From Trueperaceae bacterium (GTDB taxonomy: Bacteria > Deinococcota > Deinococci > Deinococcales > Trueperaceae): DNA of 64,000 nucleotides. This document shows positions 35,463 through 39,678 of the stretch, one piece after another. Made by a program: the position numbers and the translations under genes. Where the stretch lies: contig CBDBZX010000010.1 of the NCBI GenBank assembly GCA_965213645.1, positions 93,712 through 157,711 of the forward strand. Direction: 5' to 3'. The first letter of the stretch is position 1. Each line of letters begins with the position of its first letter. The notes under the pieces are model-generated. The model was given only the letters and a program-made list of their open reading frames with translations. It was not told where the DNA came from and did no database searches.

Positions 35463-35575
35463 GAGGTGAATTTGTGCGATTCGCTAAGCTATCAAAGTTT
35501 CTGTAGGCTTAGCAGTCTACCTTTTTACCTCTTGATGCAATTAACACCGTGAGTGATTGGGGGCTCGAGCCACTT

Positions 35576-36158: not shown

Positions 36159-36199
36159 ACTTCAATTCTAGCGCATATTGGAGGCTGAGGCTCGAGTGA

Positions 36200-36535
36200 T
36201 TACGAAAATAGCAGAGGCTCGAGCTTGTCTAAGACCTCTTCAACAACTTCGGTTGGCAAACTCGTAATGAAGTCAACTTGACGAACACGCCAATCTAAAC
36301 TTTTTATTTGGTTGACGAGAACGACGCCCGAAACCGCTTCACCTTTCGGAATGGAGACTTCAAACGGATAGCCCTTAATTTGGTTAGTAATCGGACAAAA
36401 AAGGGCTAAGCCGCTTCTGCGATTGTAGAGAGAAGGTGATAGAACTAGAGCAGGACGCCTACCCGCTTGCTCGTGACCTCTCTGCGGATTGAAGTCGAGC
36501 CACACGGCGTCGCCGCGTTCAGGAACATAGGCCAC
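36200..36535 (-). CDS. mazF: MazF/PemK-family endoribonuclease toxin
   Basis: PERGDAVWLDFNPQRGHEQAGRRPALVLSP...CPITNQIKGYPFEV. Confidence 0.85.
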   Translation of the reverse strand: MAYVPERGDAVWLDFNPQRGHEQAGRRPALVLSPSLYNRRSGLALFCPITNQIKGYPFEVSIPKGEAVSGVVLVNQIKSLDWRVRQVDFITSLPTEVVEEVLDKLEPLLFS

Positions 36536-36538
36536 CTC

Positions 36539-36793
36539 TTACCAAACCTCATTCCCTACGGGCCCCCCCGTATCTATTTCGGCGTGCGTGTTTTCTTCGG
36601 TGATGCCTTCTACAAGCTGCTCGAGCGAATACTTCGACCTTCTAATGGGCGTGCTAACGGGTGTGACGACTAACTTGCCCTCGACTAAAGTCAAGTCAAC
36701 TTCGGTGTCGGGCCCCATCTTCGTTTCTGCCGCGAATGATTTAGGGATGCGTAAGGCTAAGCTGTTACCCCACTTTTGCACTTTGGTTTTCAT
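36539..36793 (-). CDS. mazE: MazE-type antitoxin (AbrB/SpoVT fold)
   Basis: MKTKVQKWGNSLALRIPKSF. Its stop lies 3 nt upstream of the mazF start. The track ORF starts at 36814. Confidence 0.8.
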   Translation of the reverse strand: MKTKVQKWGNSLALRIPKSFAAETKMGPDTEVDLTLVEGKLVVTPVSTPIRRSKYSLEQLVEGITEENTHAEIDTGGPVGNEVW

Positions 36794-36952
36794 AAAACCT
36801 CCAAGTAGATACAAAGAGTATACAACGTTTCGGAGGGGAGGAGAGTTTGACTCGAGCGACCTCTTGGAGATAAGGGGTAGTGGTGTTGGGGCTCGAGGTT
36901 TTATAAGAACAGCACATTTCAGATGACCGAACAGATAAAAATCTTAACTAGT

Positions 36953-38044
36953 TTACTTTGGAGTAGAAAAATCTGCTGGCTCGAAGTTATCATGAGACCA
37001 TTCTAATGAGTTTGAAATAAATTGATAGGCTACTTCGATATCTCTATACTGTCTCTGACCAAACTCTAACCCCGCCTTTTGTTTTATCTGTACAGCCGGG
37101 TGAACGTAGTTTCGAGTACCTCGCAGAATGTGTGCGATATGTCTACCATTGGCAATAAAGCGCCCAGTTTCAAAATTAGGAAGCCATCCAGCACTGGCAC
37201 AGACATCTATCAATATTTCGAGTTTCCAATCGAGAGGATTTTTCGACTTGAACTTTTTCCTTGTCAACCCCATCTTTTTAAGAGTCTTCCGAACATCTTC
37301 TTCATTTTCAATACAAGTAATAATTAAACGTGCTTCAATTGCTGAGCAAAGCATAATACTAGCGCTCAAGTAAGCTCCATTAGCCGCGCTTAGTGAAGCA
37401 TTACGTTCATAAACCGCTGCCAACTCTTGAAGTCTTTCTACCTCTTCTTTAAGATGCACCGATTTTCGCCCGACATTATGAAGTTCATCAAATCTTTGGC
37501 GATCAGTAGCATAAAGCCTTGCTATATCCAGCACGCCAAATTCGACAAATGTTTCTGCAAGTTTTTTATCTAACGCCTTGTCATACTGAGCGCTTAACGC
37601 TTGGTAACTTTCAGGTGCATCGTCGGGAGCCCAATGCTCGTCATCATCCAACCCGTATGTCTTTTCAATCGCATTCATCTTTTCGGCAATTGGGTCAAGA
37701 ATGTCACTATAGCGACCATAAAGCCATCTTCTTTCATGTACAAGGACTTCAACTGCATAGCATCTACGAAATATATGCTCATGTTCAGATATTTGATTAG
37801 CTTCGTAAAGTGCATCTGCAAATTTAATGTGTACTATGGCGCGTTCACTGGAGTCATTAGAATCGAGCTGTTCTAATATGGTTTCGTCTTTCAAGAATTC
37901 GGTGAGCTTTTCTACATTCTCTTCTCGGACCTCAAGATAGCGAATAGCTTCAATTATCTTTTCTGGAATTTCTTTTGGGGTAGAGAAATCTTTCATAACT
38001 AACTGTAATTCTATCCCGTTTCGCCTTACAGTTTCATAAAACAT
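36953..38044 (-). CDS. 363-aa protein of unknown function in an AT-rich islet; C-terminal helical region is possibly HEPN-like
   Basis: Only long ORF in a segment that is visibly much more AT-rich than its flanks. C-terminal pattern SAIEARL...LEILIDVCASAGWLP...HILRGTRNYVHP (R-x6-H). Confidence 0.55.
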   Translation of the reverse strand: MFYETVRRNGIELQLVMKDFSTPKEIPEKIIEAIRYLEVREENVEKLTEFLKDETILEQLDSNDSSERAIVHIKFADALYEANQISEHEHIFRRCYAVEVLVHERRWLYGRYSDILDPIAEKMNAIEKTYGLDDDEHWAPDDAPESYQALSAQYDKALDKKLAETFVEFGVLDIARLYATDRQRFDELHNVGRKSVHLKEEVERLQELAAVYERNASLSAANGAYLSASIMLCSAIEARLIITCIENEEDVRKTLKKMGLTRKKFKSKNPLDWKLEILIDVCASAGWLPNFETGRFIANGRHIAHILRGTRNYVHPAVQIKQKAGLEFGQRQYRDIEVAYQFISNSLEWSHDNFEPADFSTPK

Positions 38045-38062
38045 AGCAAGTGCCGCATACTG

Positions 38063-38094
38063 TAAGAAAGCAGGGGCATTTCACATGCCCCTGC
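38063..38094 (-). terminator. Rho-independent terminator of pruA
   Basis: 10-bp perfect stem gcaggggcat / atgcccctgc followed on the minus strand by ctttctt. Starts 16 nt after the pruA stop. Confidence 0.7.
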
Positions 38095-38109
38095 CACTTC
38101 CACAAACCT

Positions 38110-39678
38110 CTAAAACCGCTCCACCACCGTCTTCATCTCCATAAACAACCGCAGATAGTCCGGCCCCCCCGCCTTCGAGTTCGTCCCGGAGAGCTTATAC
38201 CCACCAAAGGGCTGAATGCCAACCAACGCCCCGGTGATGCTGCGGTTAAAGTAGAGGTTCCCAACCTGAAACTCACGCCGTGCCTGCTCCAAGCGTGCGC
38301 GGCTCTTGCTAATCACGCCACCTGTGAGCCCGTAAACCGTCGCGTTGGCAATCTCTAAGGCGTGGTCGAAGTCTCGAGCTTTCATGACCGAGACGACGGG
38401 GCCGAAGATTTCCTCGCAGGCGATGGACGCGCTTTGCGGCACGTCGGCGAAGACGGTAGGCTGAATGAAGTGACCTTCGTCACCTGCGCGTTCGCCCCCC
38501 GCCACGAGCTTCGCCTCGACCTTGCCGTTGTCGATGTAGCCCATGATCTTATCCACCGCTTTTTGATTGATAACGGCGGCGACGTCGGGGTTCTCTTCGG
38601 CGGGGCCGACTTTGAGGGCTTCCACGCGCCCGGTGAACTTCTCTAAAAATTCGTCGTAGACCTCTTGCACCACGATGAGGCGGCTCATCGCGGAGCACTT
38701 CTGACCCTGAAAGCCGTAGCCGCTCGCCGCCGCGACCTCTGCCGCGTAGTCGAGGTCAGCGGTCTCGTCCACGATGAGGGCGTCTTTGCCGCCCATCTCC
38801 AAGCAGACGCGCTTGATCCATTTCTGACCGGGCTGCACCTTCGCGGCGCGTTCGTTGATGCGCAGACCCGTCGCCACCGAGCCCGTAAAGTTGATGAAGC
38901 GCGTGCGTGGATGGTCAACCAAAGCGTCGCCGAGTTCGGCGTCGTCGCCCGTCAAGAGGTTGATGACGCCCGGCGGAAAGCCCGCCTCTTCAACGCACTC
39001 CATGAATTTCTGCGCGATAATCACGGTATCGGGCGAGGGCTTGAGGATGACGGTGTTGCCGACAGCGACAGGGCCGATGGTCGTACCTGTCAAGATAGCG
39101 AGCAAGAAGTTCCAGGGCGGGATGACGACGCCGACGCCGATAGGGATATAGAACGAGGTATTCTCTTCGCCGGGGTAGTCGTAGGTGGGCAGGGGACCCT
39201 CTAATTTGAGAGATTCTCGAGCGTAATACTCCACAAAGTCAATCGCCTCAGCAACATCCGCTTCGGCCTCCTTATAGTTCTTCGCCGCTTCAAACGTCTC
39301 CCAAGCGGAGAGTTCGAACTTGCGGCGGCGCATGACGGCGGCGAGCTTCATCAAGGCTCTAGCGCGGTGCGCCATCGGCAGCCCTGACCAAGTCTCGAAC
39401 GCCTCCCACGCGGTATCCATCGCCTTTTCAATCTGCTTCTTCTTGCCCTTAGCGGTGCGCCCGACGACCTCTTCGGTTTTGCTGGGATTGTGGGACTCGA
39501 GCCACTCCCCCGTCTCGATCTTCTCGCCGCCAATCACGAGCGCATAGTCCTGCCCGAGTTGGTTGCGCACCTCGGCGAGCGCTTTCTGGTAGCTTTCGAC
39601 GACGTCGGGCTGACTAAAGTCCGAATACGGCTCAATGTTGTACGGTTCGAAAAGGTCATTCACGACTTGTTTCTCCAT
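38110..39678 (-). CDS. pruA: L-glutamate gamma-semialdehyde (1-pyrroline-5-carboxylate) dehydrogenase
   Basis: 522 aa aldehyde dehydrogenase. LEMGGKDA and FGFQGQKCSA motifs. RocA/PruA-type N-terminus. Adjacent to proline dehydrogenase. Confidence 0.85.
   Translation of the reverse strand: MEKQVVNDLFEPYNIEPYSDFSQPDVVESYQKALAEVRNQLGQDYALVIGGEKIETGEWLESHNPSKTEEVVGRTAKGKKKQIEKAMDTAWEAFETWSGLPMAHRARALMKLAAVMRRRKFELSAWETFEAAKNYKEAEADVAEAIDFVEYYARESLKLEGPLPTYDYPGEENTSFYIPIGVGVVIPPWNFLLAILTGTTIGPVAVGNTVILKPSPDTVIIAQKFMECVEEAGFPPGVINLLTGDDAELGDALVDHPRTRFINFTGSVATGLRINERAAKVQPGQKWIKRVCLEMGGKDALIVDETADLDYAAEVAAASGYGFQGQKCSAMSRLIVVQEVYDEFLEKFTGRVEALKVGPAEENPDVAAVINQKAVDKIMGYIDNGKVEAKLVAGGERAGDEGHFIQPTVFADVPQSASIACEEIFGPVVSVMKARDFDHALEIANATVYGLTGGVISKSRARLEQARREFQVGNLYFNRSITGALVGIQPFGGYKLSGTNSKAGGPDYLRLFMEMKTVVERF

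Follow-up and report, generated by a model that had tools for sequence, protein, structure and literature searches.

A foreign, GC-poor one-gene islet in a Trueperaceae genome encodes a candidate phage-defence protein with a predicted DUF4145-like HEPN domain

What does a sharply AT-rich islet that holds a single gene encode, and how did it come to lie between a mazEF toxin-antitoxin (TA) pair and the terminator of pruA? We addressed this question in the window, by which we mean the whole 64,000-nucleotide stretch of a Trueperaceae bacterium that was analysed (assembly GCA_965213645.1, contig CBDBZX010000010.1, positions 93,712 to 157,711 of the forward strand). An earlier reading of the bare letters, here called the original prediction, had described the gene as a 363-aa orphan, possibly HEPN-like. 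The islet gene is foreign and was acquired horizontally as one-gene cargo. Five lines of evidence, from sequence and from predicted structure, agree that the C-terminal domain of its product is a divergent DUF4145-like HEPN domain, and the protein is a good candidate for a new single-protein phage-defence family. The gene and the parts of its product are as follows.

36953..38044, minus strand: longest open reading frame (ORF), 363 aa, stop codon included; the sole long ORF of the islet, intact
36953..37996, minus strand: likely true coding region, 347 aa from M17
38008..38037, minus strand: candidate sigma-70-like promoter, ATGAAA-18 nt-TAGAAT, from a consensus scan (9/12 matches)
37460..37975, minus strand: N-terminal all-helical domain, residues ~24-195 (helices 28-196 in the AlphaFold2 model)
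36989..37459, minus strand: predicted C-terminal DUF4145-like HEPN domain, residues ~196-352, supported by fold, hhalign and bridging proteins
37334..37336, minus strand: codon of E237, the helix-1 Glu of the predicted HEPN domain, kept in 91/91 family members and aligned with its counterpart in helix 1 of DUF4145
37097..37123, minus strand: codons of R308-G-T-R311-N312-Y-V-H315-P316, the predicted catalytic motif [R/K]-x2-R-N-x2-H-P

The drop in base composition that the original prediction described is pronounced. In a sliding-window analysis the GC content was 0.37-0.43 over ~36,800-38,150, against ~0.60 towards pruA and 0.47-0.53 among the TA genes. The segment 36,901-38,064 (1,164 bp) has a GC content of 0.398, compared with a genome mean of 0.5685 over windows of this length (standard deviation 0.039; z = -4.33), and only 20 of 43,027 windows of the 4.31-Mb assembly (0.046%), lying in six other regions, are as GC-poor. 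At third codon positions the ORF has a GC content (GC3) of 0.327, as against 0.70-0.77 in pruA, the putA-like gene, smc and the acyltransferase gene. The single 363-aa ORF lies essentially where it had been placed. Aligned over its full length to its relatives, it contains no frameshift and no internal stop and keeps all family-conserved residues. In the alignment, 14/14 close relatives start level with residue 22, the AlphaFold2 model is disordered over residues 1-23 (predicted local distance difference test, pLDDT, <50), and the promoter-like site ends 11 nt upstream of the ATG of M17 (37996). The product is therefore probably 347 aa long, starting at M17 and translated from a near-leaderless mRNA. 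By eye, no Shine-Dalgarno sequence was visible before the gene.

The C-terminal domain was compared with known families by profile and by predicted fold. The protein falls below the gathering threshold of Pfam DUF4145 (PF13643, 23.1 bits), with no match at E <= 1. When 91 diverse family members, only 21-46% identical, were scanned singly against Pfam, two of them matched DUF4145 (best E = 1.6e-6), and HEPN_Swt1 and HEPN_Apea were matched by one member each (HEPN_Apea at E = 0.044). Alignment by hhalign of the family's C-domain profile with a DUF4145 profile, built from 30 genomic matches above the Pfam cut-off, gave a probability of 63.7% (P = 6.7e-5) over 88 columns, while the controls, an N-domain profile and a reversed C-domain profile, gave 2.1% and 0.1%, respectively. 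Two bridging proteins match both families. One, encoded on a Streptomyces plasmid, is found by the hidden Markov model (HMM) of the family C-domain at 4.5e-20 and by the DUF4145 HMM at 1.6e-9, over the same residues, and it reaches 1.1e-3 with Pfam DUF4145 itself (19.4 bits, threshold 23.1). The other, L074, is found at 2.2e-18 and 6.9e-6, respectively.

Modelled alone by AlphaFold2, the C-domain is all-alpha with a small hairpin (pLDDT 80.9, predicted template modelling score 0.77), and it carries an insert made up of a conserved [N/D]-P...W...GW motif and a beta-hairpin. Foldseek gave compact superpositions (root-mean-square deviation 6-7 A) with HEPN structures only, all at E >1, with target TM-scores of 0.58 for 2q00, 0.56 for 1ufb, 0.47-0.49 for 4nqf and 0.41 for 3o10, the HEPN domain of sacsin. 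AbiV, Csm6 and Csx1 were also among the Foldseek matches listed. Fold searches with the whole protein against the PDB and the viral BFVD returned nothing at E <0.2 and nothing meaningful in probability except HEPN proteins, and PDB sequence searches with the protein, the C-domain, the 91-member profile and the bridging protein returned only noise (IDH, XPB and designed repeat proteins). The HEPN/DUF4145-like C terminus of the original prediction is thus borne out by the profile alignment, the two bridging proteins and the 2/91 direct DUF4145 matches.

A separate weak match of the C-domain profile was to PDB 9wx2_A, a 163-aa chain named 'Dandelion-hepn' (E = 0.15, residues ~210-293). Its alignment takes in helix 1 and the '[N/D]-P..W' motif of the insert, and among solved structures this chain may come nearest to the domain.

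Conservation within the family is concentrated on the putative active site. The string HILRGTRNYVHP noted by the original prediction is present in the protein as R308, R311, N312, H315 and P316, and it contains both the R-x6-H arrangement (R308-x6-H315) and the RN dipeptide (R311-N312) that had been pointed out. Among the 91 members, E237 is kept in 91, R311 in 90, N312 in 88, H315 in 90 and P316 in 89; a loss of the Arg and His, which would have spoken against a HEPN effector, is therefore not what was found. Position 308 is basic in 82/91 (Arg in 74, Lys in 8). All alignments place the motifs in one register, DUF4145 R-x2-G-N-x3-H-P over family [R/K]308-x2-R311-N312-x2-H315-P316. In this register R308 and H315 align with the Arg and His of DUF4145, which are R146 and H154 in RAZR (ring-activated zinc-finger RNase of E. 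coli, formerly PD-T7-4). Both RAZR residues are required for phage defence, and RAZR, the only DUF4145 protein to have been studied in depth, cleaves single-stranded RNA (PMC13017515). The spacing R308-x6-H315 also agrees with the canonical HEPN Rx4-6H, in which the Arg is typically followed by a polar residue. Near-invariance of E237, R311, N312 and H315 among proteins only 21-46% identical is what an active site would show, and catalysis is predicted from it.

The designation of the gene as an orphan was wrong. Fourteen relatives are 45-49% identical to its product, and a profile search, exhaustive over 1.84 billion cluster representatives (clusters at 50% identity), yielded 808 representatives at E <= 1e-3, of which 143 reach <= 1e-30. 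Among the best 150 of the 808, almost every one is 325-370 aa long and is covered in both halves. None of the relatives with a source name or a precomputed Pfam tag is informatively annotated. Named close relatives come from Halopseudomonas, Vibrio, Photobacterium, Zooshikella, Lysobacterales and Enterobacterales metagenome-assembled genomes (MAGs) and two Bacteroidota; a more distant member, 32.8% identical, lies on a Sphingomonas megaplasmid. In the host's own phylum even the C-terminal module was found in only 7/301 genomes. The gene is absent from both same-genus genomes (the sister species G001 and G002) and from 57 of 58 other relatives, the single match being a distant relative of the C-terminal domain only. 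In 6/6 other host genomes examined, the member gene is GC-poorer than its locus. By these data the family is distributed as a horizontally moving accessory gene, patchy across distant phyla. The foreign origin that had been proposed for the islet gene accords with its extreme composition, its absence from both same-genus genomes and its close relatives in Gammaproteobacteria and Bacteroidota.

Two subsets of the family deviate from the usual length or integrity. In P0125 and P0133 (~340 aa) similarity ends right behind the '[N/D]-P' motif and gives way to low-complexity sequence, which fits copies that are decaying after a frameshift. The subfamily P0161, P0170, P0171 and P0172 (e.g. L065:10001-11245) is 374-414 aa long and has a C-terminal extension of ~60 aa with CxxC...CxxC spacing (HTCTNCREG...ECWLCELY). 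This would place a zinc-ribbon-like element after the HEPN domain, the reverse of the RAZR order.

In the N-terminal domain, R106, G110, Y112, G131-L132, W138, P144 and G192 are conserved but not invariant. The domain has no relative in Pfam, PDB or BFVD and no CxxC pair. That it might be a second, degenerate HEPN domain was considered and rejected (hhalign 0.9% against the C-domain, along with the 2.1% against DUF4145). Because no invariant polar constellation suggests catalysis, we read it as a putative sensor, regulatory or oligomerisation domain.

The C-module, with its signature E...W...GW...[LV]R[DE][YF]RN[YL]VHP, recurs behind other N termini. It follows an AbiTii-like N terminus in G034 (E = 2.9e-4) and L073 (7.3e-6, 26.7 bits against a cut-off of 27.6), another, unrelated N terminus in L070, L072 and L074, and a third type in a 280-aa Streptomyces protein. 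AbiTii gave no match in the window protein and was matched only by these distant C-module relatives. A survey of HEPN proteins described variable N-terminal domains before HEPN effectors in abortive-infection proteins, and AbiTii fused to the c2405 family, which belongs to the DUF4145-like group (PMC3710099). The recurrence of the signature shows that the C-domain, as judged from its sequence, is modular and reused with other N termini, which fits the scheme of a variable N terminus plus HEPN in that survey.

To place the gene in its locus we compared the region with the two sister species. The features concerned are listed here, with those of the sister genomes in the coordinates of their own loci.

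36200..36814, minus strand: mazE-mazF pair, context only, conserved in sister species with other cargo
36539-36814, minus strand: mazE, Pfam MazE_antitoxin 9e-9
36200-36535, minus strand: mazF, Pfam PemK_toxin 4e-28
36889..36897, plus strand: GGGCTCGAG block at the left breakpoint, the last sequence common to the sister genomes on the mazE side
36901..38064, no strand assigned: swapped cargo segment, the ORF with ~50 nt of 3' flank and ~20 nt of 5' flank
38064..38094, minus strand: pruA terminator hairpin and T-run, the right breakpoint, where sister homology resumes
2403-3065 of L031 (C1:399700-403200, G001), minus strand: DUF402 gene in the same slot
434-1096 of L032 (C4:199600-203600, G002), plus strand: DUF402 gene in the same slot

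The Pfam matches of mazE and mazF and the hairpin at 38064-38094 confirm that the islet lies between MazEF and the pruA terminator, as had been stated. At the DNA level, pruA and mazE of the sister species are 82-90% identical to those here, and the interval between them is 757 bp in both, as compared with ~1,247 bp here. Alignments with the sister genomes set the breakpoints at ~36,900 and ~38,065; what was exchanged is therefore the ORF and no more than ~50 and ~20 nt of its flanks. In both G001 and G002 the slot encodes a 220-aa DUF402 protein (Pfam 1.4e-8), and the presence of a different gene in the same position of both sister species indicates that the slot is a hotspot of cargo swapping. 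Its surroundings vary as well. G001 keeps mazE, mazF and a nucleotidyltransferase pair, with the DUF402 gene as cargo, and has an extra 202-aa PIN-domain gene beside that pair; G002 keeps mazE and has neither mazF nor the nucleotidyltransferase pair. The 35.5-38.1 kb stretch as a whole is an accessory hotspot of variable content. Around the islet we found no integrase, transposase, tRNA, Rfam family or flanking direct repeat, in agreement with the original prediction on the first two and on repeats. The locus thus presents a clean gene-for-gene cargo replacement at a chromosomal hotspot, without a recombinase or repeat signature. MazEF and the nucleotidyltransferase cassette are retained where the slot has other cargo, and so the 363-aa gene has no functional tie to either.

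The octamer GGCTCGAG occurs at 40 sites in the window, where 5.6 +/- 2.4 are expected from dinucleotide shuffles. It lies on both strands and in genic as well as intergenic positions (e.g. 35562-35571, 36189-36196, 36216-36223 and 36890-36897). There is no copy within the foreign gene, whereas the junctions between modules of the TA island and the left swap breakpoint do carry copies. Its origin could be an uptake-like or Chi-like word, or a codon effect. The idea that the copy at the breakpoint is a specific att site was rejected because the word is over-represented window-wide.

We then examined the gene neighbourhoods of relatives, pooling 75 neighbours from 15 loci: the window, 13 other family loci and the Streptomyces locus that has the C-module only. 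PADLOC matched about a dozen distinct proteins among them, including QatA-D, JetD, ThsB (2.5e-125), SoFic (8.8e-117), PDC-S13, PDC-S37, PDC-S31 (twice), type IV restriction enzymes (two), a type II methyltransferase and a type I specificity subunit; Pfam added three integrases and an IS110 transposase. A complete Qat system is directly adjacent to the Sphingomonas member. The Halopseudomonas locus contains a TIR/ThsB protein, DUF6236 and two DUF2971 (PDC-S31) genes, a Flavobacteriaceae MAG locus contains SoFic and Bro-N, and one metagenomic locus contains DUF5677, a PLD nuclease and a 955-aa methyltransferase. In L006 and Zooshikella, prophage-like elements are recognisable by their integrases, IS110 is present in L007, and a transposase and ParE/Phd are present in Photobacterium. 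The association with defence and TA genes that the original prediction had suggested therefore holds, qualitatively, in homologues near Qat, ThsB, SoFic, restriction-modification genes, ParE/Phd, integrases and insertion sequence (IS) elements. There is no conserved partner gene, the adjacent gene being different in every family locus examined. As candidates for a conserved downstream partner, the small genes in L001, L006, L007 and L009 were rejected; they are unrelated to each other and to MazE.

On the Streptomyces chartreusis plasmid NZ_CP108842.1 (L067:1142-6342), the C-module-only relative lies beside the Wadjet gene jetD (a TIGR02679 gene) and beside a TIGR02680 gene, which we take to be Wadjet JetC. 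The 280-aa Streptomyces gene overlaps by 4 nt, and is translationally coupled with, the gene of a 1,453-aa AAA-domain protein. The two genes may together form a system that uses the same effector.

In two unrelated hosts the member gene is closely followed, on its downstream side, by a short GIY-YIG-like fragment, at L001:11064-11363 (Enterobacterales MAG) and L066:8582-8779 (Sphingomonas). It reaches 1.6e-3 with Pfam in one host, and in the other it bears the annotation GIY-YIG nuclease. It may be a coincidence or the remnant of a mobile endonuclease.

Because of the homology, conservation, modularity, mobility and context described above, we lean, by a modest measure, towards a single-protein immune RNase of abortive-infection type, composed of an N-terminal sensor and a dimeric HEPN domain. 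What we infer in this proposal is that the protein cleaves RNA, that its N-domain acts as a sensor, that it confers defence and that the gene is expressed in the host. The gene is foreign one-gene cargo in an accessory slot between the pruA terminator and a small TA island. Its HEPN domain would act as a metal-independent RNase, with a composite active site formed across the HEPN dimer by E237, R308 and/or R311, N312 and H315. The RNase would be held inactive until the N-domain sensed an infection cue, such as a protein or assembly of a phage or other mobile element. Once triggered, it would cut RNA of the cell and/or the phage and halt the infected cell's growth. Abortive infection has been shown for RAZR (PMC13017515), and it is proposed for AbiJ- and AbiTii-type HEPN proteins. 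A broader form of the same proposal is possible, although the balance tips against it: the family would be a widespread single-protein immune system missed by defence finders, with a new sensor in the N-domain, an Arg-Asn-x2-His site and a C-module that forms an effector clade sister to DUF4145/RAZR. It would comprise hundreds of 50%-identity clusters in Proteobacteria, Bacteroidota, the host's phylum and others. R311 would replace or cooperate with the canonical Arg, and a distinct RNA target, e.g. specific tRNAs, might be cleaved.

Several results weigh against an immune RNase. Even at E <= 1, nothing in Pfam, NCBIfam, PHROGs or PADLOC matches the protein, and a genome-wide PF13643 search matched two other loci, not this gene. 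The hhalign probability against DUF4145 is just 64%, and no Foldseek match of the C-domain is statistically significant, all E values being above 1. The family motif is one residue shorter than that of DUF4145 and has Arg in place of Gly. R311, the better conserved Arg, is three residues from H315 and thus outside the canonical Rx4-6H, and R308, the canonically spaced one, is not invariant. The pLDDT of the motif region is 54-71 in the full-length model. Sequenced phages yielded no family member, and the plasmids searched held one member and two C-domain-only matches. The neighbourhood tally is qualitative, without a matched background control, and the neighbourhoods of L001, L009 and L065 appear mostly metabolic.

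Other explanations of the gene were weighed against the same evidence. It could be a selfish element or addiction factor, in which a HEPN toxin, curbed by its own N-domain or by an unlinked factor, serves to stabilise a mobile element or in competition, as in plasmid or prophage exclusion or post-segregational killing. HEPN domains are common as TA toxins (PMC3710099), the gene moves horizontally and lies at the ends of prophage-like or integrative elements and by IS elements and TA pairs, and a C-module relative adjoins Wadjet, an anti-plasmid system. We nevertheless consider this unlikely, given that the downstream gene differs at every locus with no conserved partner, that no member turned up on sequenced phages and hardly any on the plasmids searched (the one member and two C-domain-only matches above), and that its strongest neighbours, Qat, ThsB and SoFic, are anti-phage. 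The remodelled motif, with its Rx3H for the best-conserved Arg and its length one residue short of DUF4145, could instead belong to a non-catalytic HEPN-like binder or regulator, as proposed for MtlR, in which R, N and H bind a ligand or partner; c2405 and MtlR, both of the DUF4145-like group, lack a full catalytic dyad (PMC3710099). The near-invariance of E237, R311, N312 and H315 at 21-46% identity makes such a role quite improbable, as does a patchy, defence-island-linked distribution that differs from that of a regulator tied to a pathway.

The extreme, unameliorated composition would also be expected of a functionless passenger, a recent foreign gene that is silent or neutral in this host. 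No Shine-Dalgarno sequence is visible by eye, the candidate promoter is a consensus-level match, and members elsewhere are frameshifted (P0125 and P0133). The ORF in the window is nonetheless full length, with every conserved residue kept and a plausible near-leaderless promoter before M17, and we assign a low probability to this explanation. Finally, the gene is on the same strand as mazE and 138 nt upstream of it, with no terminator detected between them, and a DUF6036/AbiEii-like nucleotidyltransferase gene lies 1 kb away, an arrangement that might point to a three-gene module with MazEF or to the HEPN partner of a HEPN-MNT-type TA system. Coupling of either kind was rejected by the sister-genome comparison and can be given hardly any credence: mazE is retained in both sister species, and in G001 so are mazF and the nucleotidyltransferase pair, each time with a DUF402 gene as the cargo, and neither MazEF nor a nucleotidyltransferase gene adjoins the gene in any of the 13 other family loci examined or in the C-module-only Streptomyces locus.

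An immune RNase of the kind favoured here would most resemble RAZR (PMC13017515), which is likewise a single protein with an N-terminal non-catalytic domain and a C-terminal divergent HEPN domain of DUF4145 type, and which acts by abortive infection and occurs in accessory and defence contexts; the shared mode of action is proposed here from sequence. The two differ in both halves. The N-domain of RAZR is a Cys4 zinc ribbon of ~65 aa, whereas that of the window protein is helical, ~175 aa long and without CxxC. The RAZR motif is Rx7H with Gly-Asn, here Rx6H with Arg-Asn, and the window protein has the extra C-domain insert ([N/D]-P..W..GW plus hairpin). PADLOC gives 0 families for it at E <= 1, the RAZR/PD-T7-4 model included. 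With Pfam DUF4145 (PF13643) the family shares an association with restriction-modification and defence genes, and a distant yet reproducible profile homology extends over helix 1 and R..N...HP, but the protein and most of its family fall below threshold, with a one-residue deletion, a Gly-to-Arg change and an insert between the core helices. The architecture of an AbiTii N-terminal domain joined to a c2405-type domain (PMC3710099) is shared by G034 and L073, whereas the N-domain of the window protein is not AbiTii; c2405, compared by its description, has His without Arg (PMC3710099), and the C-module here keeps two Arg.

AbiJ, AbiV and ApeA follow the same logic of an N-terminal sensor or regulatory domain with a HEPN RNase effector, and AbiV was among the fold matches, but neither domain of the window protein has a detectable sequence relation to theirs beyond the superfamily level. 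The type II/VII HEPN-MNT TA systems likewise contain a HEPN-fold putative RNase, and a nucleotidyltransferase-fold gene is nearby in the window. The family, however, has no conserved adjacent MNT, and the nucleotidyltransferase in question is part of a separate two-gene cassette that a sister species retains in the absence of the islet gene. The kind of protein, a sensor with a HEPN RNase as in RAZR, AbiJ and ApeA, is thus known; what would be new here is the remodelled motif and the undescribed N-domain in a large family. If the proposal is true, it adds to the one-protein abortive-infection RNases a large family that is absent from Pfam, NCBIfam, PHROGs and PADLOC, together with a new candidate sensor domain, for which phage escape genetics could reveal the trigger, and a natural experiment on the limits of HEPN catalytic motif remodelling. 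The protein is in any case a concrete candidate for a defence family missed by current tools, unsurprising in principle.

The rest of the host genome (G000) contains further islets of this composition. Of the six other regions that are as poor in GC, three code for proteins of defence type: C2:1455478-1456518 (GmrSD_N/NsnA-like), C2:1795080-1796339 (an OLD/Gabija GajA-like ATPase-TOPRIM protein) and C2:2159364-2160929 (GmrSD_N/PDC-M55C/HEC-05-like). Extreme low-GC islets in this genome are largely defence cargo, and low GC is a practical pointer to such cargo. The islet G000:C2:1553683-1554735 (minus strand), also among the seven of lowest GC in the genome, encodes a 351-aa protein with no Pfam or PADLOC match. 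Its C terminus, AYNPRNDIVHRG, contains a canonical HEPN-like R-N-x3-H, and the protein is a second unannotated HEPN candidate in the genome.

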